Source of the DNA: a virus
Direction: 5' to 3' (one strand)
DNA: 64,000 nt
IMG/VR virus record: IMGVR_UViG_3300028920_000029
Span: 96,001-160,000 of that record
Shown piece by piece: positions 31,883 through 47,787 of this stretch (within the stretch, counting starts at the first letter, position 1; each line of letters opens with the position of its first letter). The position numbers were made by a program, and so were the translations under genes. The notes beneath the pieces are model-generated. The model searched no databases and was not told the DNA's origin. It was given only the letters and a program-made list of their open reading frames with translations.

Positions 31883-31966
31883 TGGTGGGCAGGGATGGAT
31901 TCGAACCATCGTACCCGAGGGAACGGATTTACAGTCCGCCGCCTTTAACCGCTCAGCCACCTACCC
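31883..31966 (-). tRNA. tRNA-Tyr(GTA)
   Basis: cloverleaf, loop CT-GTA-AA, long variable arm, CCA. Confidence 0.95.
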
Positions 31967-32443
31967 ACGTTTTTTACTACCATATGTATCTGTTTGAGTA
32001 TGACAATTTGGACAAAGAATTCTTAGGTTCTCTAATCTATTGTCAGTATGATCACCGTTTATATGGTCTAAGTGCATACTTAGTTTTTTATTATTCCATA
32101 CGTTACCTTGACTACATTTCTCACATATTTCCTGCTTTAATCCAAACTCATATAATTTTTGTTTTAATGCATGACTTGTCCACTTAGCACCATCTAAACA
32201 AAGAACATTTTTTGTGAAGGACGTTATGGAGTGTTTCCTGCTATTGGCCCCAGTAGATGACCACCCACGATTTTTAAAATGGGACGTATCTAGCCCATAA
32301 TCCTTAATACGTTTAGCCACTAAATTGTGACTTCCTCCACCTACTCGTAAACCTAACTCTCTAATAATGTCCGCGACATTATAATGTCTTTTGACTAACT
32401 CGTTTAACAGTTCCTTACTATATTTTGTAGTATTTGCTTTCAT
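31961..32443 (-). CDS. HNH homing endonuclease (start revised to MKANTT)
   Basis: CEKC...LDHINGDHTDNRLENLRILCPNCH; stop codon lies inside the 5' end of tRNA-Tyr. Confidence 0.9.
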   Translation of the reverse strand: MKANTTKYSKELLNELVKRHYNVADIIRELGLRVGGGSHNLVAKRIKDYGLDTSHFKNRGWSSTGANSRKHSITSFTKNVLCLDGAKWTSHALKQKLYEFGLKQEICEKCSQGNVWNNKKLSMHLDHINGDHTDNRLENLRILCPNCHTQTDTYGSKKRG

Positions 32444-32470
32444 AGTAAACCTCCTATCTAGAATACTACT

Positions 32471-32499
32471 AGTATAGCATATTATAGTGACAAAAGCAA
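32471..32499 (-). promoter_or_regulatory. promoter of the HNH cassette
   Basis: TTGCTT-17nt-TATACT. Confidence 0.55.
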
Positions 32500-32504
32500 A
32501 TACC

Positions 32505-32540
32505 AACAGCCAGATGTCATTGCCGCTAGACTATACTGGC
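32505..32540 (-). pseudogene. orphan 5' half of a tRNA (GTN anticodon)
   Basis: GCCAGTA-TA-GTC..GAC-A-TCTGG-CTGT then breaks off. Confidence 0.8.
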
Positions 32541-32548
32541 ACTATATT

Positions 32549-32635
32549 TGGCGGAAAGCTCAGGACTTGAACCTGAACGGGATTGCTCCCCAGAGTTTAG
32601 CAAACTCTTGCCTTACCAATTAGGTCTAGCTTTCC
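32549..32635 (-). tRNA. tRNA-Ser(GCT)
   Basis: AGAGT-TTGCTAA-ACTCT, long variable arm. Confidence 0.92.
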
Positions 32636-32643
32636 TTTATTTC

Positions 32644-32739
32644 TGGAGGAGAGGGAGCGATTCGAACGCTCGAGCGTCATCTCTGACGCCACCTATTTTC
32701 AAGATAGGTAGAATAAACCTGACTCTCTTACACCTCTCC
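32644..32739 (-). tRNA. tRNA-Ser(TGA)
   Basis: CCTAT-CTTGAAA-ATAGG, long variable arm. Confidence 0.9.
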
Positions 32740-32745
32740 TCTATA

Positions 32746-32824
32746 TGGTTGCGGAGGTCAGATTTGCACTGACGTTGTTTCAGGGTATGAGCCTGCTGCT
32801 GGAACTACTCCAGCCCACTCCGCT
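32746..32824 (-). tRNA. tRNA-Met(CAT), initiator-like
   Basis: CT-CAT-AC loop, unpaired 1:72. Confidence 0.8.
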
Positions 32825-32831
32825 TATTTTT

Positions 32832-32908
32832 TGGTCCCCAAGCCTGGAGTTGAACCAAGAAAAAGCAGGTTTTGAATCTGCCGCCTATGCCAATTCGGCT
32901 ACTTGGGG
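32832..32908 (-). tRNA. tRNA-Leu(CAA)
   Basis: TT-CAA-AA loop, short variable region. Confidence 0.88.
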
Positions 32909-32909
32909 T

Positions 32910-32995
32910 TGGTGCGCCAGGTAGGACTTGCACCTACACGACCGAAGCCGACGGATCTTAAGTCCGTTGCGTCTGCTAAATTCCGCCACTAGCGC
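32910..32995 (-). tRNA. tRNA-Leu(TAA)
   Basis: ACGGA-CTTAAGA-TCCGT, long variable arm. Confidence 0.92.
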
Positions 32996-32996
32996 T

Positions 32997-33072
32997 TGGT
33001 GGGTCCACAGGGAATTGCACCCCAATCTTCCGATTAAAAGTCGGAAGCTCTAACTAATTGAGCTATAGACCC
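32997..33072 (-). tRNA. tRNA-Lys(TTT)
   Basis: TCCGA-CTTTTAA-TCGGA. Confidence 0.93.
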
Positions 33073-33073
33073 T

Positions 33074-33150
33074 TGGTGCCCCTAGAAGGATTTGAACCTT
33101 CAGAATTCTGATTCTAAGTCAGATAGCTATACCGATTCGCCTATAGGGGC
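33074..33150 (-). tRNA. tRNA-Leu(TAG)
   Basis: TCTGA-CTTAGAA-TCAGA, short variable region. Confidence 0.88.
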
Positions 33151-33152
33151 AT

Positions 33153-33227
33153 TGGTGCGTCGAGGTGGGAACGATCCACCGACCTTCTCCTTAAGAAGGA
33201 GCAGCTCTACCACTGAGCTACCGACGC
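33153..33227 (-). tRNA. tRNA-Lys(CTT)
   Basis: CTCC-TTCTTAA-GGAG. Confidence 0.9.
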
Positions 33228-33231
33228 ATTA

Positions 33232-33304
33232 AAGGTTGGGCTGCGTACACGCTGTATCGTTTCTCCAAGGATTACGCCTCCTAGGCGACCAACTACCCAA
33301 CCTT
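33232..33304 (-). ncRNA. unidentified ~73-nt structured RNA
   Basis: 9-bp closing stem AAGGTTGGG/CCCAACCTT with internal CGCCT/AGGCG hairpin; fills the gap between RNase P RNA and tRNA-Lys. Confidence 0.45.
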
Positions 33305-33312
33305 ATTTTTAA

Positions 33313-33603
33313 AAGTAATTCATAACCCAGGTTCTGTTTTTGCAGTCATTAATCTTAGCGTCCTTACCCGCGTGCTCCGTGAGGTCTCATCATCACACGC
33401 CTATTTGGACTTGCTCACAGTAAAGGTTGGTCGTCTCACTTGTTTTTAGTTTATATAATTTTCAGAATCTGAGTTTTTATAAAACTAAAAACAACTCGTC
33501 TCTGTCCCCTATTTGTCGCTCACGCGCCCAGCTTTTAAGACTGGTACTGCGCCTCAATTGAGCCTGGAGTTTCCTCGGTTTCCCGCGACTGCTTGAATCA
33601 CTC
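33313..33603 (-). ncRNA. rnpB: RNase P RNA
   Basis: P1 GAGTGATTCA/TGAATTACTT, P2 GCAGTC/GACTGC, GAGGAAACTCCAGG and AACAGAACCTGGGTTAT forming P4 with the bulged U; ACAGA, GAGCAAG motifs. Confidence 0.9.
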
Positions 33604-33816
33604 TTATTTTTTCAACAATGCAATTAATTCTCTTCTAGCTTTTGCTTCCTCTGGGGTATCGTGAACACTATGATCTACCCATTTAACATCCACTTCTGAA
33701 TACTCAACAAATCTACCATCAACTAAAATCCATCCTCGTTTTGTGTTTTTGTTTCCAAATAATACTGGTCCAGCAATTTGTACTTTTTCTCCTGTAGCTT
33801 TAATTATTGCTTCCAT
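33604..33816 (-). CDS. hypothetical protein (start revised to MEAIIK)
   Basis: AAGGAGGT RBS; the longer ORF in the track overlaps tRNA-Asp. Confidence 0.65.
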   Translation of the reverse strand: MEAIIKATGEKVQIAGPVLFGNKNTKRGWILVDGRFVEYSEVDVKWVDHSVHDTPEEAKARRELIALLKK

Positions 33817-33841
33817 TTGTTTACCTCCTTCCCGTAAATTT

Positions 33842-33916
33842 TGGCGCCCCACGACAGAGTTGAACTGTCCTATTCGGCGCGACAAGCCGACGTAATAGCC
33901 GATATACGAGTGGGGC
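33842..33916 (-). tRNA. tRNA-Asp(GTC)
   Basis: TCGGC-TTGTCGC-GCCGA, G73. Confidence 0.9.
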
Positions 33917-33928
33917 ACTATTTCTTTT

Positions 33929-33957
33929 AGTATACTTAAAATACCAACAAGCGTCAA
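33929..33957 (-). promoter_or_regulatory. internal promoter upstream of tRNA-Asp
   Basis: TTGACG-17nt-TATACT. Confidence 0.7.
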
Positions 33958-34199
33958 TTAGCTTTTTTATTTTTTACTATACTTCTTAATTTATTATGCA
34001 GCCCAGCAAAAATTGGCAAATAAACATTCTTAAACGTTTCTTTCCATTTTTCACAGTATGGACAACCGTCTATGTGATCGTCCTCATTTATGTGTTTCTT
34101 ACACATATGTACGCCGTCTTCAGCAATATAATAGTGTTCCGTCTCAGTTACCAAAATCGGTTCCGTTACACCTTTTCGATACAATAATTTTTTACCCAT
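33954..34199 (-). CDS. hypothetical protein
   Basis: 81 aa, AAGGAGGTGA RBS, own promoter. Confidence 0.65.
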   Translation of the reverse strand: MGKKLLYRKGVTEPILVTETEHYYIAEDGVHMCKKHINEDDHIDGCPYCEKWKETFKNVYLPIFAGLHNKLRSIVKNKKAN

Positions 34200-34219
34200 A
34201 GTTCACCTCCTTTCTTTTA

Positions 34220-34248
34220 AGTATACTTAAGGTTTTGACATATGTCAA
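34220..34248 (-). promoter_or_regulatory. internal promoter
   Basis: TTGACA-17nt-TATACT; -35 is half of the palindrome TTGACATATGTCAA. Confidence 0.75.
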
Positions 34249-34261
34249 GCCTTTTATTTCC

Positions 34262-34336
34262 TGGCACCCCCTGTAGGCTTCGCACCCACGCACCGCGGTC
34301 CGTAGCCGCGAGCTCTGTCTCCTGAGCTAAGGGGGT
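34262..34336 (-). tRNA. tRNA-Arg(ACG)
   Basis: CGCGG-CTACGGA-CCGCG. Confidence 0.9.
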
Positions 34337-34337
34337 A

Positions 34338-34412
34338 TGGTGTCCCTTGATGGAATCAAACCACCGTCTCAGCTTTAGGAAAGCCGTGTTCTATTCACTG
34401 TACTAAAGGGAC
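34338..34412 (-). tRNA. tRNA-Arg(CCT)
   Basis: CGGCT-TTCCTAA-AGCTG. Confidence 0.9.
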
Positions 34413-34413
34413 A

Positions 34414-34489
34414 TGGTGCCCTGAGAAGGACTCGCACCCTCGACCTACGGAGTAGAAATCCGCTGCTCTGTCTCCTGAGCTACCAGGGC
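34414..34489 (-). tRNA. tRNA-Arg(TCT)
   Basis: GCGGA-TTTCTAC-TCCGT. Confidence 0.9.
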
Positions 34490-34494
34490 CTTAC

Positions 34495-34570
34495 TGGTTG
34501 CGGGACCACGGATCGAACGTGGACTATTCTGAGTCAGGGTCAGATGTTTTGCCTATTAAACTATCCCGCA
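34495..34570 (-). tRNA. tRNA-Gln(CTG)
   Basis: TCTGA-CCCTGAC-TCAGA, T1:A72; C33 instead of U33. Confidence 0.85.
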
Positions 34571-34571
34571 A

Positions 34572-35117
34572 CTATATCTTCCATTTTTTACGTCTTTTAA
34601 TAACAGCTTGACCACTACAATTTTTAATAGTAGCAATCTCTTCGTTAGTTTTTCCGTCTTTTACTAAGGCCTCAAGTTCTCTTTTGTTCCATTCTATTTT
34701 TCCAGCTAATTTTCCTGCACACATTAAAGAACAAGTTTTTCTATATGCCATCTTTTCCTTGCCACATACTGGGCAAAAATCCTTTAATTCGTTTTTAGTA
34801 GAATCTGTTATAAGTTTATCATTAAATCTCAATGCTGTTTTTGGAATTATACTTATTAATCCATGCACTTCGCTATGACAATTGCTACAAACCATAACAC
34901 ATTTTTCTACTTCTTTTTTAATTTTTATCCACTTCGTAGGATCTCTAAGCATAAAAGCAATTCCGCTTTCTTTATCTTTACTATTTAAATGATGGAACTC
35001 TAAAGCGTCTATATGTTTATTATACCCACAAATGCAACATTTTCCACCAAAACCTTCTACTAGTTTCTTTTTTGTATTCCGTCTCCAACGTTTTACAGCC
35101 TCAGATTTAGCACTCAT
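34572..35117 (-). CDS. HNH endonuclease with C-terminal Zn-finger/HTH
   Basis: GGKCCICGY...ALEFHH...KCVMVCSNCHSEVH. Confidence 0.88.
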   Translation of the reverse strand: MSAKSEAVKRWRRNTKKKLVEGFGGKCCICGYNKHIDALEFHHLNSKDKESGIAFMLRDPTKWIKIKKEVEKCVMVCSNCHSEVHGLISIIPKTALRFNDKLITDSTKNELKDFCPVCGKEKMAYRKTCSLMCAGKLAGKIEWNKRELEALVKDGKTNEEIATIKNCSGQAVIKRRKKWKI

Positions 35118-35147
35118 AGTAAAACCTCCTTATAGTTTATTACTACA

Positions 35148-35177
35148 AGTATAACATAACACGGTGTGTTAATGCAA
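35148..35177 (-). promoter_or_regulatory. putative promoter of the second HNH
   Basis: TTGCAT-18nt-TATACT with extended -10 TG. Confidence 0.5.
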
Positions 35178-35192
35178 CTTGTTACGTTATAT

Positions 35193-35267
35193 TGGCTCCA
35201 GCGGGTGGAGTCGAACCACCATTTTACTCCTTAACAGGGAGGCGCATTACCATTATGCTACACTGGA
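35193..35267 (-). tRNA. tRNA-Asn(GTT)
   Basis: CT-GTT-AA, G73. Confidence 0.92.
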
Positions 35268-35269
35268 AC

Positions 35270-35346
35270 TGGTGCCTCCGAAAGGATTTGAACCTTTGGC
35301 CAAAGCGTTATCAACACTCTGCTCTACCAAGCTGAGCTACAGAGGC
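35270..35346 (-). tRNA. tRNA-Ile(GAT)
   Basis: TT-GAT-AA loop. Confidence 0.92.
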
Positions 35347-35347
35347 A

Positions 35348-35423
35348 TGGTGGAGACGATCGGGAACGATCCGACAACCCCCTGATTGCAAATCAGGCGC
35401 TCTCCCAATTGAGCTACGTCCCC
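35348..35423 (-). tRNA. tRNA-Ala(TGC)
   Basis: TT-TGC-AA, G3:U70. Confidence 0.93.
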
Positions 35424-35424
35424 A

Positions 35425-35500
35425 TGGTGGATACTTTTGGAGTCGAACCAAATTCTCTTGTTCTTCAGACAAGCGTGATGACCGCATTCACCAAATATCC
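35425..35500 (-). tRNA. tRNA-Phe(GAA)
   Basis: CTTGT-CTGAAGA-ACAAG. Confidence 0.9.
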
Positions 35501-35501
35501 A

Positions 35502-35578
35502 TGGTGCTCTCCGAAGGACTCGAACCTCCGACCCTCTCATTATGAGTGAGACGCTCTAACCGACTGAGCTAGAAGAGC
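35502..35578 (-). tRNA. tRNA-Ile2 or elongator Met (CAT)
   Basis: TCTCA-CTCATAA-TGAGA; identity not resolvable by eye. Confidence 0.85.
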
Positions 35579-35585
35579 AATATTC

Positions 35586-35659
35586 TGGAGAGGCGAGTAA
35601 GATTTTAACTTACCTTATCTGGGTTGCAACCAGACGCCTAGACACTTGGCTATCGCCTC
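35586..35659 (-). tRNA. tRNA-Cys(GCA)
   Basis: TT-GCA-AC, U73. Confidence 0.88.
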
Positions 35660-35670
35660 TCTTAATTCTC

Positions 35671-35745
35671 TGGTAGTCGGAGTGGGTACTGCCCCCACCT
35701 GGTCCTCTTTGTAAGAGAGGTGCATGACTAATCTGCCATCCGACT
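35671..35745 (-). tRNA. tRNA-Val(TAC)
   Basis: CCTCT-CTTACAA-AGAGG; atypical D and T loops. Confidence 0.85.
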
Positions 35746-35766
35746 TCTATTAAGATCTATAAATCC

Positions 35767-35840
35767 TGGTTGCCTCAGAACGGGTCGAACGTTCGCTACC
35801 TGTGTCAAAAACAGGCGTGCTACCACTACACTACAAGGCA
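35767..35840 (-). tRNA. tRNA-Gln(TTG)
   Basis: CCTGT-TTTTGAC-ACAGG, T1:A72. Confidence 0.9.
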
Positions 35841-35844
35841 TTTT

Positions 35845-35918
35845 TGGAGAGGGCTAAGGGACTCGAACCCTTTTTTTCAGTTTGGAAGACTGGAGTTAAA
35901 CCTATTAACTAAGCCCTC
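35845..35918 (-). tRNA. tRNA-Gly(TCC)
   Basis: CT-TCC-AA, U73. Confidence 0.88.
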
Positions 35919-35920
35919 TC

Positions 35921-35991
35921 TGGTACCACGAACTGGAATTGCACCAATCCTCTGGGCGTATGAAACCCTGAGTCCATCTAATGGTCGTGGC
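35921..35991 (-). tRNA. atypical tRNA(CAT) with shrunken D-arm
   Basis: acceptor GCCACGA/TCGTGGT, GGGT-TTCATAC-GCCC, T-arm, CCA; D-arm reduced to CCAT-TAG-ATGG. Confidence 0.7.
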
Positions 35992-35999
35992 CTATATTT

Positions 36000-36075
36000 T
36001 GGAGCCCACGGAGGGACTTGCACCCCCAACCGTCGGTTTACAGGACCGCTGCTCTTCTATTAAAGCTACGCGGGC
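36000..36075 (-). tRNA. tRNA-Thr(TGT)
   Basis: CGGT-CCTGTAA-ACCG, C2:G71; C33. Confidence 0.85.
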
Positions 36076-36085
36076 TCTTAATTTT

Positions 36086-36159
36086 TGGTGTGAGGCGGGG
36101 ATTTGAACCCCTCTGGGAGAGCCACAATCTCCCGTGCTAACCATTACACTAGCCCCACC
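36086..36159 (-). tRNA. tRNA-His(GTG)
   Basis: TT-GTG-GC loop, encoded G-1. Confidence 0.9.
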
Positions 36160-36162
36160 ACT

Positions 36163-36237
36163 TGGCACCGCCGTAAGGAATCGAACCCTATCTTTCTGTT
36201 CTGGAGACAGATGTGCTAACCATTACACTACTGCGGC
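36163..36237 (-). tRNA. tRNA-Trp(CCA)
   Basis: TCTGT-CTCCAGA-ACAGA, G73. Confidence 0.92.
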
Positions 36238-36240
36238 ATT

Positions 36241-36317
36241 TGGTGACGCATGTGGGACTCGAACCCACAATCCTCAGACTGAAAATCTGATGGCTTAAAC
36301 CATTTGCCTAATGCGCC
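36241..36317 (-). tRNA. tRNA-Glu(TTC)
   Basis: TCAGA-TTTTCAG-TCTGA. Confidence 0.92.
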
Positions 36318-36349
36318 ACATCTCTTTAACTGTTAAGAACTATAAGTGC

Positions 36350-36426
36350 TGGTCTAGGTGGAAGGATTTGAACCTTCGACATCTTGCTTCCAAGGCAAGC
36401 AGGCTACCAGACTGCCCCACACCTAG
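36350..36426 (-). tRNA. tRNA-Pro(TGG), first gene of the array
   Basis: CTTGC-CTTGGAA-GCAAG, C1:G72. Confidence 0.92.
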
Positions 36427-36431
36427 TCGTT

Positions 36432-36471
36432 AAAATAAAAAAGGCCCGACGGATTTCTCCGCCAGGCCTTT
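36432..36471 (-). terminator. intrinsic terminator (attenuator) directly upstream of the tRNA array
   Basis: 14-bp stem AAAGGCCTGGCGGA-GAAA-TCCGTCGGGCCTTT running into a U-rich tract, ending 5 nt before tRNA-Pro. Confidence 0.9.
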
Positions 36472-36492: not shown

Positions 36493-36645
36493 TCACATAG
36501 AGCTGCCTGGCAGACCTGGCGGTTTTTGTGTATCTATACATACCGCCGCCAACAGAATATAGGCATGCATAAATAACTGGCTATCGCCAAGCCATTCTGC
36601 TCTTCGCCTATTCTCTGTGGTCTGTGACAAACTCTTAAGCAACAT
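36493..36645 (-). CDS. 50-aa leader peptide containing all 20 amino acids (not in ORF track)
   Basis: AGGAG RBS at 36655-36659; MLLKSLSQTTENRRRAEWLGDSQLFMHAYILLAAVCIDTQKPPGLPGSSM*; lies between promoter and terminator. Confidence 0.8.
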   Translation of the reverse strand: MLLKSLSQTTENRRRAEWLGDSQLFMHAYILLAAVCIDTQKPPGLPGSSM

Positions 36646-36717
36646 GATTTATTTCTCCTAATTTTGGTGCTATGTTGGACTAGCACCTTATGCTAACACA
36701 ATCTTTATGACAATACA

Positions 36718-36746
36718 AGTATACTCATGGTTTCGGTAAATGTCAA
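36718..36746 (-). promoter_or_regulatory. promoter of the leader/tRNA operon
   Basis: TTGACA-17nt-TATACT. Confidence 0.85.
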
Positions 36747-37570: not shown

Positions 37571-37992
37571 TTAGTATCTCCTTTAGTAGGGTAAGTTCTT
37601 TTTTCGGTATCTGGTTCTACAGATATATCGCCAACTCCTATATAAGCTTCCAAGTTCCTCTTGGGTTTAACTTTTGAATTAATGGTATCTATGTACGCAT
37701 GCACTTTATCAGACATAGTTTTTGTAGTTATATCTTCTGGAAGCTCATCCTCAACAATCTTTTTGTCGTTTAGAATAACGGTGAATCCTCCAAGCATTCC
37801 AGGGGCCTTTGGGTTCGATGTAGGCATTACCGCAACAGGTTTATAAAACTTAAAATCCTTTTGTAACTGAATACCTAATGATCGAGCCAGTTCCATAGTA
37901 GTCGCTGCACGAGATAATACGTCCGATAAATCCTTCTTAGATAACTTCATGAACTCTTTCCACTGTCTTGGTTCTATTCTATTCATCTTCAT
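37567..37992 (-). CDS. hypothetical protein
   Basis: 141-aa ORF. Confidence 0.65.
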   Translation of the reverse strand: MKMNRIEPRQWKEFMKLSKKDLSDVLSRAATTMELARSLGIQLQKDFKFYKPVAVMPTSNPKAPGMLGGFTVILNDKKIVEDELPEDITTKTMSDKVHAYIDTINSKVKPKRNLEAYIGVGDISVEPDTEKRTYPTKGDTK

Positions 37993-38416
37993 AGCTATCC
38001 TCCATACTAAGTCTTTTAAGTGTTGAATATACGTGTCTGTTATCTAACTGATACTCGTGCGGGAAATAACACTCATATTTTTCGGCTATGAACCTTGCTA
38101 CCGCCGCAGACCTGCTAACTCCTCCTTCACAGTGTACCACTATATGCTCAATGTCCTTTGGAAGCATATCTATAAACTCTAGTATCTTACGTGCGTCATC
38201 CTCCGTAAAGTTTATATACTCATTCTCTTCTGCGCCGTCAAAGACCCAGGCACCTCTGACGCCATCCACGTCATGAAAAGCAAGCCTTAAAACATACTTC
38301 CATAACTTGTGTAGTGTTGGGGCGTCTCTTTTGGGGTCCCTAATGGAAATTAAAGCTACATGTTCATTAGGTACCACCTGTTCTATAACTGCCCTGGATA
38401 CGAAGTCGACTTTCAT
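37979..38416 (-). CDS. dual-specificity/tyrosine phosphatase family protein
   Basis: CX5R motif VHCEGGVSRSAA, FHD loop. Confidence 0.85.
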   Translation of the reverse strand: MKVDFVSRAVIEQVVPNEHVALISIRDPKRDAPTLHKLWKYVLRLAFHDVDGVRGAWVFDGAEENEYINFTEDDARKILEFIDMLPKDIEHIVVHCEGGVSRSAAVARFIAEKYECYFPHEYQLDNRHVYSTLKRLSMEDSYEDE

Positions 38417-39254: not shown

Positions 39255-39743
39255 CTACTCTTTAAGTAGCTCATCCCCAGTCTTATTAAGACTTGGGTCA
39301 TCTATATTGTACCAAGTCTTACCTCCGTCCTTAGAGAAGAAACTTGGGTCTCTTTTGTTTTGCCACAGGGTTTTGGCGTTTTTACCACACATATCTGTGA
39401 TGTCCATCCACTCATCTGGATTAGAAGAAATAGGTGTTAAAGTTTTATACTTAAGCAGTTTGTTTAGTATATCTATGGTAAGACTTGCCGAGAAACCGCT
39501 ATGACCTTGCGTAGAAAAAACCTTAACCATGTCTAATATACTTTTACCAAGTGCTCCGTTATAATCTGAGCCTTTGTCAAACATGCCAGCTCTCCGAAGT
39601 TCTTTTTCCGCATGACTAACTAAGTTGCTTTTTCTAAACCGTTCCTTAAAGTTAAAAAAATTTACTATCCTTGTCCACCAAGATATATACCAAAACAGTT
39701 TAGGTGTTGCTACGGGCTCAAGATCTTTCTCATCACTCGACAT
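39255..39743 (-). CDS. conserved phage protein
   Basis: HAEKEL..GHSGFSA..DEW..QNKR motifs recalled from phage proteins. Confidence 0.7.
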   Translation of the reverse strand: MSSDEKDLEPVATPKLFWYISWWTRIVNFFNFKERFRKSNLVSHAEKELRRAGMFDKGSDYNGALGKSILDMVKVFSTQGHSGFSASLTIDILNKLLKYKTLTPISSNPDEWMDITDMCGKNAKTLWQNKRDPSFFSKDGGKTWYNIDDPSLNKTGDELLKE

Positions 39744-41922: not shown

Positions 41923-41950
41923 AGTATACTGATAAATTGCTATTTGTCAA
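41923..41950 (-). promoter_or_regulatory. sigma70/sigmaA-type promoter
   Basis: TTGACA-16nt-TATACT. Confidence 0.75.
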
Positions 41951-42788
41951 GGTCTTTTCTAAGTTTTTTTCTAATAGGTATTTCGCTTTCTAGGCACCCA
42001 ACACTTCCAGATCCCATACCATTTTGTAAGGTTTCTACATACTTACCTATTTTTAAACATCCTGGGGGCTCTATAGAGGACGCCTGGTCTGTGCCGTACA
42101 TCGATCTATCAAGTGTTATATGATACTCTAACATTTCCGCCCCCAATAAGTACGCCGCCACAATAAAGATTATTCCTGCATAATGATTTGAGTAGCCTAT
42201 TTTATACTTATCTCCATACATATCCTTAAGTGTTGATAAACGTTTTAGATTTACATCTTTCACTGGGGTGGGGTAGCTTGAAGTACACGACAGTATATAC
42301 TCAACAGTATCTCCAAAGATTTCTAAAGCTGCGTTTAGTTCATCAATACTACTCATACCAGTGGATAGTATAACCTTTTTACCCGTACCCTTTATTTTCT
42401 TAAGTAGAACTTTGTCCGTCAACGACGCCGACGCAACCTTTATATATGGTATATCAAATTGGGATAAAAATTCTACTGAGTTAACATCCCAAGGTGTGGC
42501 AAACCAAGCGATACCCTTATACTTACAATACTTATCTATTTCTTTATATTCTCGTAATCCGAATTCTCGAGCCCTTTTGTAATCCCCTACCGTAGCACCC
42601 CATGGAGACTCCAGATACTTATCAAGCTCCTCTTGTGTATATAAAAAATCTATATCTCTTTTCTGAAACTTAACTCCGTAACAACCACTAATAGCGGCGA
42701 TATCTATAAGTTCTTTAGCCATATCCACGTCGCCATTAGCGTTTATACCTATTTCAGCTATAAGTTTTGTATTAGACACCGTGCTCAC
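41940..42788 (-). CDS. neuB: N-acetylneuraminate (nonulosonic acid) synthase family
   Basis: IAEIGIN, VKFQKR, KVAS, LSTGMS, CTSSYP, GYSNH, EYHITLDR. Confidence 0.9.
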   Translation of the reverse strand: MSTVSNTKLIAEIGINANGDVDMAKELIDIAAISGCYGVKFQKRDIDFLYTQEELDKYLESPWGATVGDYKRAREFGLREYKEIDKYCKYKGIAWFATPWDVNSVEFLSQFDIPYIKVASASLTDKVLLKKIKGTGKKVILSTGMSSIDELNAALEIFGDTVEYILSCTSSYPTPVKDVNLKRLSTLKDMYGDKYKIGYSNHYAGIIFIVAAYLLGAEMLEYHITLDRSMYGTDQASSIEPPGCLKIGKYVETLQNGMGSGSVGCLESEIPIRKKLRKDLDK

Positions 42789-43464
42789 CCCAATACTGTT
42801 TTAAATTTTCTTCACAGATAATCAAATCTGTAACGTCGTCTATCTCTTGAAGTTGCGGTTTATCCATCAGATATACGGAAATCTTTCCTCCCAGCCTGTT
42901 ACGGTGCTTTTTTATAAAGTCTGGAGTGAATATGTATATGGACCCGTTTTCTACTATCAAAGTTTTTCTATTGTCGTCTTGGCGCATACCCCTATTCTTG
43001 TAATCATACGTTACGCTATTTGGTGTATCGTCCCAAACACACGCAGAGGTTAGCGGTACACCAGAAAATAGCGTATCTGCCTCCTCCAATACATACTGAT
43101 CTAAAGCCTTATCGATATCGCCGACATATCGTAAAGGTGACGTAGCCTGAAGAAATACTACCAAGTCAATATCTTTTATACCTGAGTAATCCAATACGTG
43201 AATAATTGCGTCTTCCGATGGAGACGTATCTGTGGCCATACTTTCTGGTCTATCTACTACGCAAACCTCGGGATATCTTTCTTGTACAAACTCCATTATA
43301 TCTTTGCTATCGGTAGTAACAAATACTTTACTAACTTTAGTACTATCTAACGCGGATTCTATTGTCCAAGATACCAGCGGCTTTCCATTTATTGGTATTA
43401 AGTTTTTTCCTATAATACCCTTAGATCCACCACGAACAGGTATTATTGCAACTACGTTATTCAT
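42772..43464 (-). CDS. neuA: acylneuraminate cytidylyltransferase
   Basis: IPVRGGSKGIIGKN, LQATSPLR, ENGSIY, EIDD. Confidence 0.9.
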   Translation of the reverse strand: MNNVVAIIPVRGGSKGIIGKNLIPINGKPLVSWTIESALDSTKVSKVFVTTDSKDIMEFVQERYPEVCVVDRPESMATDTSPSEDAIIHVLDYSGIKDIDLVVFLQATSPLRYVGDIDKALDQYVLEEADTLFSGVPLTSACVWDDTPNSVTYDYKNRGMRQDDNRKTLIVENGSIYIFTPDFIKKHRNRLGGKISVYLMDKPQLQEIDDVTDLIICEENLKQYWGEHGV

Positions 43465-43583
43465 ACTTTTCTAAACCCCCTAAAAGACGCATCCTTATTT
43501 TTGTATAGTCTGTCTATAGAAGCCAAAGTTGACGCGCAGTTTTTTGTGTAGTAATCCATTATCATATACTATTACTAGTGTTC

Positions 43584-44534
43584 TCATTGTATGCTCGCTT
43601 TAAAATATTCTATGGTTCTTTTTAGTCCTTCATCTATTGAAGTTTTAGCTTCGAACCCCAACAACTCCCTAGCCAATCTCGTATCGCTTTGTCTAGTTCT
43701 ATACCCTACCCGTTCAATACTTTTATCAAATACAACATTAGCGTTACTTCCACTAATGTATACTATTTTTTCTACTAAATCTTTTATAGTTATTTGGTCA
43801 TCACATGCTAAATTTATTGGAGTAGCATCCTTAGACTTTTCTGACGCCAAAAGTATTCCTTGTACTATATCCTTTACATATATAAACGATCTTGTTTGTA
43901 AACCATTACCCCACACCACTATTTCGTCTTTAGTTACGGCCTTGTTAACTAACGCAGCCACTACGTGCGCCACCTTAGGGTCAAACTTATCTTTAGGGCC
44001 GTATGCGTTGGACGGCCTAACTATAGTAACTGGTTTTCCAGAATATTTATACATAGTTTGCCCAAGCTGTTCCATAGTTCTCTTAGCTAATCCGTAGCCT
44101 AAATTTGTTTCTTCTGGAAGGTCTAAAAACCCTGCGGATTCTGGAGTGGGTACCTCAGCGTCTCTAGCGTATACGCAGGCCGAACTCACTAACGTAACTG
44201 CTTGGATATTATTGTCCTGTATGGCTTGAAGTACATTACTTGACATAATAACATTATTATTAAATATGCTAAAGTTACTATTCATATTGTACTCTATACC
44301 TCCAACATCTGCTGCCAAATGCATTACATGATCGAAGTCTTTGATAGCTTCAACACACTGTGGTAGATTTTTAAGATTTGCAGTTACGACTTTACATCCC
44401 ATAAACATATCTTGAGGAATTCTAGATAGTATACTAACATCAGCCATCTCTGATTTTAACGCCTCACATAGATGTGAACCTATGAACCCAGAGCCTCCAG
44501 TAACTAAGACTTTTTTGTTTTTCCAAAAACTCAC
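43584..44534 (-). CDS. NAD(P)-dependent GDP-sugar epimerase/reductase (Fcl/ColC/GME-like)
   Basis: TGGSGFIG, LAADVGGI, SSACVY, YGLAK, VWGNG..RSFIYV. Confidence 0.85.
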   Translation of the reverse strand: MSFWKNKKVLVTGGSGFIGSHLCEALKSEMADVSILSRIPQDMFMGCKVVTANLKNLPQCVEAIKDFDHVMHLAADVGGIEYNMNSNFSIFNNNVIMSSNVLQAIQDNNIQAVTLVSSACVYARDAEVPTPESAGFLDLPEETNLGYGLAKRTMEQLGQTMYKYSGKPVTIVRPSNAYGPKDKFDPKVAHVVAALVNKAVTKDEIVVWGNGLQTRSFIYVKDIVQGILLASEKSKDATPINLACDDQITIKDLVEKIVYISGSNANVVFDKSIERVGYRTRQSDTRLARELLGFEAKTSIDEGLKRTIEYFKASIQ

Positions 44535-45694
44535 TTTAGTATCTCCTCAAATGTTTTTCCTATGTAGTCTATATCGCTATCCGTTATATACTGATGACAT
44601 CCAATGTAAAATGCTTGTGACCCTAGAAATTCCGCATTCTTTAATTTACCCTTATACTCAAATTTAAAGTTTGAATATGCTGGCTGTTGTGTAGGTATAC
44701 ACCCAAACAGCGGCCTCGACTCAATTCCTTTAGCTGTTAGTTTACTCATAAGCTCTTCTCTATTTAGGTTGGTAATTATTGGATATGCTAAATAGCTTAC
44801 GTTCTCGTCATACTTAGGGAGTATCAAAGCGTTCGAAATTCCTTTTAGCCTATTGTTTAGTTTCTTAACATTTTCTGATCTTACTTTAACTATTTCATCC
44901 ATTTTAGCTATCTGCCCTATCCCTAACGCTGCTTGAAATTCCATAGTCTTAAAATTATATCCTACATGGGTATGCGTAAACCTTGGGTTGTTTCCTTCTT
45001 TTGGACACGTACCTTGAGCCTTCGTGCACACCAAACAATCACATGCCCTACCATTAGCTTTTAATCTCCTTATTAACTTCGCGACTTCTGCATCATCGGT
45101 AACTATAGCTCCCATCTCGCCAACCTGAATGTTGTGCGCTATATAAAAGGAATAGTCCGCAAGTAACGACATAGTGCCCACATTCTTTCCGTTTATCTTG
45201 GTTCCGTGAGCTTGTGCAGCGTCCTCAAATACAGTTAGGTTATACTTTTTGGCTAGATAGTTTATTGCGTCCATGTCGCATGGATAACCCATTAAATGTA
45301 CTGGGAGTATCGCGGCGTATCCTTTCGGGTCAACCTGTAGTAACGACTCCACCTCAACAATAGACATATCAAACGTTATGGGGTTCACGTCAACATATAC
45401 TGGTTTAAGTCCTGCAAGTATTAAGGCGTTTGATGTTGCTACATAAGTCAGCGGAGTAGTAATAACTTTGCTGCCTTTAGGAACCTTATTAAGGTACTTA
45501 AGCGCTAGCAAGCCTACAAGCAGTGCAGACGTACCAGAGTTAACCGTTACACAGTATTTTGTACCTATCTTCTTGGCAAACTCTTTTTCAAACTCCTTAA
45601 CATACTTGCCTTCGGATATCTGCCCAGAGTCTAATACGGCGTTAATGGCGTCTCTTTCTTCCTTACCTATTCTAAAATCTCCTACCCTAATCAT
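44531..45694 (-). CDS. DegT/DnrJ-fold PLP enzyme, probable 3-dehydratase (ColD/RfbH-like)
   Basis: VNSGTSA, EDAAQAHG, SFYIAHN with His at the catalytic Lys position, Cys cluster CDCLVC..C. Confidence 0.8.
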   Translation of the reverse strand: MIRVGDFRIGKEERDAINAVLDSGQISEGKYVKEFEKEFAKKIGTKYCVTVNSGTSALLVGLLALKYLNKVPKGSKVITTPLTYVATSNALILAGLKPVYVDVNPITFDMSIVEVESLLQVDPKGYAAILPVHLMGYPCDMDAINYLAKKYNLTVFEDAAQAHGTKINGKNVGTMSLLADYSFYIAHNIQVGEMGAIVTDDAEVAKLIRRLKANGRACDCLVCTKAQGTCPKEGNNPRFTHTHVGYNFKTMEFQAALGIGQIAKMDEIVKVRSENVKKLNNRLKGISNALILPKYDENVSYLAYPIITNLNREELMSKLTAKGIESRPLFGCIPTQQPAYSNFKFEYKGKLKNAEFLGSQAFYIGCHQYITDSDIDYIGKTFEEILK

Positions 45695-45695
45695 A

Positions 45696-46661
45696 CTAGC
45701 CCTCCTTTAGCAACTTTATATCTTCGTGGACCATCATGTCTATTAATTCTTCAAAACTAACCTTAGGCTTCCACCCAAGTTCTGCCTCAATTTTTGTAGC
45801 GTTACCTACCAAAAGATCAACCTCGGCTGGCCTATACAATTCCTTATCAATCTTTACATAGTTTTCGTAGTTTAGCCCTACTCCGCCGAACGCCACCTCT
45901 AACAACTTTTTAACAGTATGTGTCTTTCCAGTTGCAATCACATAATCTTTCGGCTCGTTGTTTTGTAGCATCAAATACATAGCCTCAACATAGTCACCAG
46001 CAAATCCCCAATCTCTTTTGGAATCTAAATTACCCATACTTAAACTTTTTGACAGTCCCAACTTTATCTTTGCAACTTCATGAGTTACCTTTCTAGTAAC
46101 AAACTCCATTCCCCTACGCGGGCTTTCGTGATTGAAGCACATTCCAGAACACGCAAAAAGATCATAACTTTCTCTATAATTTACAGTAGCCCAATGACCG
46201 AAAACTTTCGATACTCCATAAGGACTTCTAGGATAGAAAGGTGTTGTTTCAGTTTGTGGAGTTTCAACTACCTTACCGAACATCTCACTACTAGATGCTT
46301 GATAAAATTTCGTTTTAGGACTAATCAATCTTATAGCCTCAAGCACATTTACAACGCCAACACCCGTAACGCTAGTCGTTGTAAGCGGTGCTTTCCACGA
46401 ATGAGGCACAAATGACTGCGCACCAAGATTGTACACTTCATCTGGCTTAACATCTCTCAGTATTGAAATTAAAGAAGACAGATCTGTTAAATCTCCAGAT
46501 ACAAATGTGATACTATCGAGCAGGTGGTCGATTCGATGTGTAGTTGTGGTACTTGAGCGTCGCTTCAACCCAAAAACATTGTATCCTTTATCTAGCAACA
46601 ACTCTGCCATGTAAGATCCATCTTGCCCAGTAATACCTGTAATAAGTGCCGTTTTACGCAT
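45696..46661 (-). CDS. gmd: GDP-mannose 4,6-dehydratase (start revised to MRKTAL)
   Basis: [42 protein letters not shown]. Confidence 0.95.
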
Positions 46662-46662
46662 G

Positions 46663-47787
46663 CTAATCCTCCAGTGCCTTTTTCGCCAAAATAAACCTGC
46701 GAAGTATTTTGTTGTCATCTTTTATTTCTCCAGCCACCTTAAGTGAGAAACCACTGTAGAGTAAGTACTTAATTTTTTTATCAAAGTTTTTATCTACTGT
46801 AGTTACATCTCCACTTTCCAATAAAAAATATCCTCCAGGATTTAGTAACCCTTTAACTTTATCACAAAACTCAATAAAAGTATACCTTGTATAAAAATCT
46901 ACTACTAACGAAAGTATGATATCATATTTAGCCGTAACGTTAAAATCTTCGAAGCTTATATTATATAGGGTACAGTTCGGTATATCTAGTATTCTTTTAG
47001 CCTCATTACCTACGCTTACAAGATCGGCGTTTATATCGATAGCGTCTACATGTTTTACATACCTACTTAACACTAGCGATATAAATCCCGTATTACACCC
47101 TATATCCAGTAGTTGCGAGTTAGCATTTATAACTGATTCTATACTGTACTTTTCCAACCTATGTAACGTAGAACGTTGACCAGTTAGTTTTAATAGCGGA
47201 CAGCTTTGATAAAAATCTCCACGACCTAATAATTGCTTTGAGGCTGTGTATGCCTCTTTTAAACTAATTATATCGGCCACTTTTTTCTTAGCAAAATCCT
47301 CGGATATACGATAGTTAAACTTAATCAGGTCCCACGTTTTGTTAACAAGATTAAGTTCTTTTGGTGAAAAGTTACGATTTTCAAACCAATCTATACCATA
47401 TCTCGGATCACCGTCTTCCCGAATAAGTATCTCAAACTTTGATACGTTAGCAAACAAAAGAATGCACGCAAGCCTGTGAGCGCCATCGATTACACGTAAA
47501 TGCTTGTTCACAATTATAGGAGACGCATAGTTATACCCGTTGGCTTGAATAGACCTAATGAGGAGTTTAAATTTTTTTACGTACATATCCGCATCATGAT
47601 CGGACATACCCAATCTTTCCTGCTGCATTTTTTTATATAAGGCTATTCCAGGACCTTGCGTTTTGCTTACTAGTTCTTCTGCTGCAAGGTATCGTACCGC
47701 AATATCATATCTGTTAAACGTGTATGCCCCTCCATCTTCAACAAATTGATCCAATAACAGCTGTCTCGGTGTTGTTAGTGCGTGCAC
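46663..47787 (-). CDS. ParB-like domain fused to class I SAM methyltransferase
   Basis: IDGAHRLA and LDIGCNTG. Confidence 0.7.

Follow-up and report, generated by a model that had tools for sequence, protein, structure and literature searches.

We propose that a 50-codon leader ORF and the intrinsic terminator that follows it constitute, in an uncultured phage, a ribosome-mediated transcription attenuator of the whiB7-uORF type that is placed before the phage tRNA array, a reading that we hold with moderate confidence. As a model, the anatomy, which consists of a leader encoding all 20 amino acids, a switch with a duplicated antiterminator strand and the tRNA array behind it, is well supported; within the same model it is plausible that the leader serves as a sensor of decoding capacity, and slow reading by the ribosome would probably raise the tRNA output.

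Phage tRNA genes have reportedly been discussed for fifty years as supplements to codon usage and lately as substitutes for those host tRNAs that defence systems destroy, while to our knowledge the control of their expression has barely been addressed, and in the literature we found no published account of leader-peptide control of tRNA genes, in phage or host. A translated test gene that contains every amino acid and controls access to the array would let decoding capacity feed back on the tRNA supply of phages, and would carry the attenuation of the trp/whiB7 type over from amino-acid and stress genes to tRNA genes.

The leader cassette and the tRNA array

The window, i.e., the whole stretch of 64,000 nucleotides that was analysed, is taken from a record that is a single virus genome of 173,362 bp with 40% G+C. 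The phage is uncultured and without a DNA relative in 50,697 phage records, marine-sediment metagenomes contain its DNA, as found by matching to sequencing runs, among which no RNA run is listed, and its large terminase is only 26% identical to that of the nearest cultured phage. The tRNA genes are preceded by the following elements.

36718..36746, minus strand: promoter TTGACA-17-TATACT, 11/12 of the consensus
36646..36711, minus strand: 5' untranslated leader of 66 nt, with the predicted start near 36711 and two small hairpins
36659-36655, minus strand: ribosome-binding site AGGAG, 9 nt 5' of the ATG
36493..36645, minus strand: leader ORF, 50 sense codons plus TGA (ATG at 36645, TGA at 36495-36493)
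36433..36471, minus strand: intrinsic terminator, with a 14-bp stem, a GAAA loop and a U run, -25.2 kcal/mol

The leader ORF is very unlikely to be accidental, because AGGAG at such a spacing is found at 3.8% of all ATGs in the genome and only 2.5% of the shuffles of the leader sequence stay open for 50 codons; a chance ORF was rejected on these grounds. A strong ribosome-binding site is present in 111 of the 169 phage genes. The terminator begins 21 nt past the stop codon of the ORF, with tRNA-Pro beginning 13 nt past the stem, and it is the strongest terminator-like site on its strand in the 173-kb genome. The combination of a ribosome site, a short ORF and a strong terminator occurs nowhere else across the 173 kb, and the same script found no equivalent cassette before about 60 tRNA blocks in KVP40, Atu_ph07, T5, XacN1 and GAP32, five cultured phages with large tRNA sets, so that the arrangement is not a generic by-product of tRNA arrays. 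It is noted that a tmRNA identity was also tried and was rejected with ARAGORN.

About 10 promoters in the phage genome, the leader promoter among them, share the nearly identical sequence TTGACA...AGTATACT. They have the form TTGACA-N14-(A/G)GTATACT and mostly lie 20-30 nt upstream of a strong ribosome site; the family members on the minus strand of the window are at 939, 4075, 19633, 31824, 33957, 34248, 36746 and 41950, and it is only at the leader's copy that a long structured 5' region lies downstream.

The array, also on the minus strand, contains 29 tRNA or tRNA-like genes that together serve all 20 amino acids. This number was already given in the first-pass annotation and is confirmed here, with 26 of the 29 being called by ARAGORN at default settings and the three missed ones being the following.

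36000-36075, minus strand: Thr-UGU with C33, missed by ARAGORN and the only one of the 3 found by the Rfam tRNA model
35671-35745, minus strand: Val-UAC with the deviant T loop GGCAGUA, missed by ARAGORN and by the Rfam tRNA model
35921-35991, minus strand: CAU tRNA-like gene with a 3-nt D loop and an 8-bp anticodon stem, missed by ARAGORN and by the Rfam tRNA model

The array is divided in the following way.

34262..36426, minus strand: first 19 tRNA genes, for which the leader promoter is the sole predicted promoter
33929..34248, minus strand: two internal promoters (34248-34220 and 33957-33929) and an 81-codon ORF
31883..33916, minus strand: remaining 10 tRNAs (Asp, Lys x2, Leu x3, Met, Ser x2, Tyr) and the RNase P RNA
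33308-33604, minus strand: class-A RNase P RNA, lying within the tRNA array, 112 bits against the Rfam cut-off of 100

The order of the first block is Pro, Glu, Trp, His, Thr, the CAU-like gene, Gly, Gln, Val, Cys and Met, and then Phe, Ala, Ile, Asn, an HNH gene, Gln and Arg x3. Since the stretch from the leader to 34262 has no further predicted promoter or terminator, these 19 tRNA genes can be reached only through the leader. The internal promoters at 34248 and 33957 feed the Asp, RNase P RNA, Lys, Leu, Met, Ser and Tyr genes independently of the leader. The isoacceptor sets of Leu (three), Lys (two) and Ser (two), which the earlier annotation had counted among those answered by the leader, lie downstream of the internal promoters and are therefore not gated by the leader alone. 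The best reading is that the switch directly gates 19 of the 29 tRNAs, while the other 10 have other promoters too. As a separate observation, the P4 strand of the phage RNase P RNA is unusual, with GAGGAAACUCCAGG in place of ...AGUCCGGG.

Folding of the leader RNA and the proposed switch

The leader RNA contains five segments that can engage in the alternative pairings.

36542..36552, minus strand: segment 1 (UUGGCGGCGGU), codons 32-35, forming a -12.4 kcal/mol hairpin with segment 2 (anti-antiterminator)
36512..36523, minus strand: segment 2 (ACCGCCAGGUCU), Pro-Pro-Gly codons 42-44, forming a duplex of -23.6 kcal/mol with segment 3
36505..36514, minus strand: segment 2' (UCUGCCAGGC), Leu-Pro-Gly codons 45-47, forming a duplex of -20.5 kcal/mol with segment 3
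36458-36469, minus strand: segment 3, the 5' arm of the terminator
36440-36453, minus strand: segment 4, the 3' arm of the terminator

Segments 2 and 2' are adjacent and both lie inside the last nine codons of the ORF (codons 42-47), segment 2' being 9-18 nt 5' of the stop codon. In shuffled sequences the best complement of segment 3 has -13.6 +/- 2.1 kcal/mol, and 0/400 equal segment 2 or 2'. The 286-nt leader RNA as a whole folds with -105 kcal/mol (z = -8.2 against shuffles), the fold of the untranslated RNA having a closed three-way junction, and the antiterminator domain (-27.8 kcal/mol) and the terminator (-25.2 kcal/mol) are of comparable stability.

The nascent RNA was folded without the 3' arm of the terminator, with a ribosome footprint of 29 nt masked codon by codon. 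In these masked folds the antiterminator reaches a probability of about 0.9 on ribosome-free RNA and with the A site anywhere in codons 1-40, and drops to 0 for A-site positions in codons 42-49, the fold switching at codon 41/42. For the untranslated nascent RNA the antiterminator is predicted to be favoured by 5.1 kcal/mol. The complete RNA at equilibrium always forms the terminator, and the decision between terminator and antiterminator must therefore be kinetic; the modelled outcome of the switch thus rests on kinetics beyond equilibrium folding. A weak point of the model arises when the ribosome is placed exactly at the stop codon: segment 2 is then exposed and, on thermodynamic grounds, favours pairing with the terminator arm (0.82), so that prior formation of the local 1:2 hairpin is required.

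Based on these folds, we propose the following pathway. When the ribosome moves in step with RNA polymerase and arrives at the end of the ORF, it would cover segment 2', and segment 2, emerging behind the ribosome, would be taken by segment 1; the terminator would then form and the tRNA genes would be off. When the ribosome is delayed before about codon 41, or when there is no translation at all, segment 2 or 2' would pair with the terminator arm, with a delay upstream leaving segment 2' free and a delay at codons 28-40 freeing segment 2 as well. The resulting read-through would lead to transcription of the first 19 tRNA genes and probably of the whole array. The duplication of the antiterminator strand would remove the 'superattenuation' of the trp type, so that any stall would count, and because any stall would count, a codon-diverse ORF would be useful. 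Pro-Pro-Gly, encoded here at 36514-36522 on the minus strand, is a motif that is slow to translate, and we speculate that it would park the ribosome over both antiterminator strands.

With every amino acid and nearly every codon class present in the ORF, failed decoding of almost any codon would raise the tRNA output in this model, the possible causes of such a failure being starvation, host shut-off and tRNA cleavage.

Codon breadth of the leader ORF

The 50 codons of the leader include 37 distinct ones and cover 20/20 amino acids. It had been claimed in the first-pass annotation that these codons mirror the anticodon inventory of the array. The codons listed there are all present. AGG-CGA-AGA stand consecutively as codons 13-15 (36601..36609, minus strand), each matching a different one of the three Arg tRNAs of the phage, with the probability that three Arg codons fall into three classes being 0.12-0.18. 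Further, the leader has AAG/AAA, CAG (twice)/CAA, AGT/AGC (twice)/TCA/TCT and ATT/ATA/ATG (three times), and each of N, W, F, H, Y, V and C is represented by a single codon. The Leu codons, TTG (three times), TTA, CTT (twice) and CTG (twice), had been matched to Leu CAA/TAA/TAG; they are present, but CTT has no direct match to Leu-UAG.

For the comparison the array was grouped into 28 decoding classes under standard wobble, with 26 distinct anticodons and with CAU split into Met and Ile2. A cognate leader codon is found for 27/28 of the classes. The class that is missed is Gly-UCC, because the leader Gly codons are GGC, GGT and GGC, all three of which miss the only Gly tRNA of the phage. At the level of single codons, 8/49 are unreadable by the array under standard wobble, i.e., CTT (two), ACC, GGC (two), GGT, GCC and TCT. 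Random codons and the phage genes alike lead one to expect an unreadable share of about 20%, so that the share in the leader is at the chance level (P=0.32-0.35). With U34 superwobble in four-codon boxes, the array decodes 99.8% of all phage codons, and therefore any ORF would 'match' the array. On both counts the codons cannot be said to mirror it.

What can be said is that the coverage is broad. The simulation of 50-codon windows that the earlier annotation had suggested as a check was run, and equal coverage is not common, as can be seen from the following null sets.

In-frame 50-codon windows of phage genes: P(20 amino acids) 1-1.5%; P(at least 27 classes) 0/40,000
Independent codons at gene usage: P(20 amino acids) about 2%; P(at least 27 classes) 0.0005
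Random sense codons: P(20 amino acids) 4.5-5.4%; P(at least 27 classes) 0.002-0.005
Stop-free dinucleotide shuffles of the ORF: P(20 amino acids) 11%; P(at least 27 classes) 0.019

Among the six-frame ORFs of 40-60 codons in the genome, 1/379 reaches 27 classes, and this one is the leader ORF itself; the five other frames of the leader DNA reach 18-22 classes. The codon breadth of the leader is real and uncommon, being 1 in 50 to 1 in 500 against the sequence-based nulls, with the coverage statistic having been picked post hoc, after inspection of the ORF. That 37 distinct codons are little above the expectation, as had been cautioned, is borne out (33-34 expected, P=0.07-0.12). The earlier annotation placed the signal in a complete coverage of isoacceptor classes; 27/28 classes are covered, with Gly-UCC missed, and the extra coverage over that given by 20 amino acids has P=0.02-0.05 in random ORFs and 0.11 in self-shuffles. 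A sensor based on the ribosome is codon-specific by nature, but the idea that this particular sensor resolves isoacceptors is not borne out, there being no preference for array-readable codons and the coverage given 20 amino acids having P=0.02-0.11.

Two readings of this breadth can be considered. The first is that the attenuator is real and is worked by the ribosome, with the codon content being incidental: the switch would gauge the overall speed or coupling of translation, the peptide would drift freely under the constraints of the RNA structure, and the coverage of 20 amino acids and 27 classes would be luck. This has a real, if minor, chance of being the case. [quoted passage not shown] However, a joint coverage of this extent is still expected in only 1 of 50 to 1 of 500 cases, the composition is slightly, and at most slightly, more even than that of random draws (lower 4.7% tail), and the other five frames fall well behind with their 18-22 classes. 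In the attenuator that we propose, it is plausible that the breadth was selected.

The second reading goes further than the attenuator that we propose. It holds that the leader is a selected 'whole-pool' probe, in which every isoacceptor class is represented, so that the loss of any single host tRNA would stall the ribosome on the leader and switch on the replacement tRNAs and the RNase P RNA of the phage; an anticodon nuclease, or some other defence that likewise cleaves tRNAs, would be the most obvious trigger. If this were true, the stretch would represent a sense-and-respond circuit of counter-defence. We consider it unlikely. Phage tRNAs are reported to be able to replace host tRNAs that are cut by anticodon nucleases, PARIS or retron effectors (PMC10264068, PMC11464382, PMC11555353), which gives a rationale for the cleavage idea; by contrast with what is proposed here, these papers describe the tRNAs, and in their searchable text no sensor that switches them on was found.

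Known systems, relatives and neighbouring genes

By analogy, the closest working counterpart of the proposed attenuator is the whiB7/wblC uORF of Actinobacteria, where a uORF of tens of codons stands before an intrinsic terminator and stalling brings about antitermination (PMC10274678). The uORF of M. smegmatis whiB7 encodes 19/20 amino acids, i.e., nearly all of them, as compared with 20/20 in the 50 codons of the phage leader; the amino acids sensed follow the composition of the uORF, with a single Trp codon conferring Trp sensing; and loss of the start codon leads to higher basal expression (PMC10274678), which matches the read-through fold predicted for the untranslated phage leader. The two are analogues with no sequence relationship and no Rfam match. 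They also differ in that whiB7 regulates the gene of a host transcription factor while the phage leader precedes tRNAs, and in that whiB7 uORFs are enriched in Ala while the composition of the phage leader is even and its antiterminator strand is duplicated.

The classical leaders (trpL, hisL, leuL, thrL, pheL and the multivalent ilv leaders) share with the phage leader the promoter-proximal short ORF, the 1:2 / 2:3 / 3:4 pairings, the intrinsic terminator and the choice of the fold by the ribosome position. Unlike it, they stall the ribosome at a defined place where one to three cognate amino acids occur in runs, they give termination in the absence of translation (superattenuation), where the phage leader is predicted to read through, and they regulate biosynthetic enzymes, not tRNAs. 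What is usually looked for in a leader-peptide attenuator was found here in the promoter with its ribosome site and short ORF, in the intrinsic terminator before the genes and, in silico, in the exclusive antiterminator. Clustered regulatory codons such as those of the classical attenuators were not found in the leader ORF, where Arg-Arg-Arg at codons 13-15 is the only run and sole exception, the amino-acid frequencies being near-random.

A further comparison can be made with toiL, the uORF of E. coli topAI-yjhQ, where stalls at different positions are reported to signal many translation stresses and to remodel the downstream RNA (PMC12121999); toiL differs in using occlusion of the ribosome-binding site and Rho-dependent termination, in answering antibiotics and in controlling a toxin-antitoxin operon. 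The T-box is likewise a leader RNA with a choice between terminator and antiterminator that reports tRNA status; it differs in that it binds one uncharged tRNA directly, has conserved Stem I and T-box sequences and belongs to synthetase and amino-acid genes. A T-box riboswitch was rejected for the phage leader, as no covariance-model match was found at E of 10 or less (search of 336 nt with lax filters) and the leader instead contains a ribosome site followed by an ORF. The Rfam search of the leader gave nothing above chance, with the weak matches to the trpB motif and the Thr leader (E 0.12-4.4) resting on the terminator hairpin.

These searches bear on another possibility, namely that the switch is worked by an agent other than the ribosome, such as a phage or host antitermination protein, a bound tRNA or a small ligand, with the ORF being irrelevant or a small early gene. 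Phages commonly time their genes by antitermination, the RNA is exceptionally structured (z = -8.2) with the closed three-way junction in its untranslated fold, and conservation of the ORF is unseen, there being no leader homologue among the relatives searched. Yet no Rfam family, T-box included, emerges at E of 10 or less beyond the hairpin matches just mentioned, and the ribosome site, the open frame and the location of both antiterminator strands in the last nine codons would all have to be coincidences; we regard this possibility as very unlikely. It is as improbable that the stretch is no more than a small early gene of the ordinary kind, or a stable small RNA, that has its own promoter and a plain terminator that leaks somewhat, the tRNAs arising from constitutive read-through, since, although the same promoter family drives other small phage genes, the two strong complements of the terminator arm are unexpected by chance (0/400), 19 tRNAs would have to rely on leakage past the strongest terminator of the genome, and the peptide has no homologue in 5.8 billion proteins.

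Relatives of the proposed attenuator were searched for at several levels. The leader with its flanks gave no match in the DNA of 50,697 phage records, where the array gave only tRNA-level matches; the leader peptide found only itself among the 5.8 billion proteins and belongs to no PHROG family; and the neighbouring proteins and an SbcC-like protein gave no match in IMG/VR. Of the short probes, the 28-mer of tRNA-Pro found no match, the 17-mer of the Val T arm gave at least 119 matches, by chance only, the 17-mer of the RNase P P4 variant gave one chance match, without RNA genes, and the 20-mer of the leader gave six chance matches in JGI metagenomes, in GC-rich bacterial DNA.

By their large terminases, relatives exist at 45-67% identity, and three IMG/VR records of terminase relatives are long enough for inspection (G001, G002 and G003). 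They have one tRNA (G001), nine tRNAs at the contig end (G002, which appears collinear with the phage) and 63 tRNAs (G003). The only array-flanking proteins common to these three records and the phage are HNH genes, and the short ORFs upstream in G002 and G003 show no amino-acid match to their own tRNAs (permutation P=0.41). In G003 (IMGVR_UViG_3300028800_000066; terminase 34% identical) the 63 tRNA genes are on one strand at 39.5-81.5 kb, within 42 kb, and those for one amino acid mostly stand together (Asn x3, Arg x4, Leu x4, Met x3, Lys x4 and others), with small ORFs interleaved.

A near-identical strain is present in a second marine-sediment sample. Its leader differs by the synonymous change TTG>TTA in codon 2 and by two further bases between the ribosome site and the ATG, which together are too little to weigh; the sites listed for this strain are at 36640, 36651, 36652, 36329 and 38321 of the window.

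Finally, we note the genes around the leader. A protein of the Tad3 (Thoeris inhibitor) family (39255-39743, minus strand; Pfam E = 6.6e-38) and a dual-specificity-phosphatase-like protein (37979-38416, minus strand) are encoded 1.5-3 kb upstream of the leader, and anti-defence genes therefore neighbour the tRNA array; homologues of Tad3 are widespread and so uninformative for synteny. The 115-aa protein that abuts the leader promoter has distant homologues only, none of them beside tRNA arrays. Further upstream, at 41940-47787 on the minus strand, lies a sugar-nucleotide cluster with NeuB, two epimerase/dehydratases, a DegT aminotransferase and a GDP-mannose dehydratase, and an unrelated contig carries one distant homologue of the 115-aa protein within a NeuB cluster that resembles this one. 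Other genes of the phage code for a GroEL-type chaperonin and an NrdD-like anaerobic ribonucleotide reductase (L006:1740-3374, L006:6994-9012).
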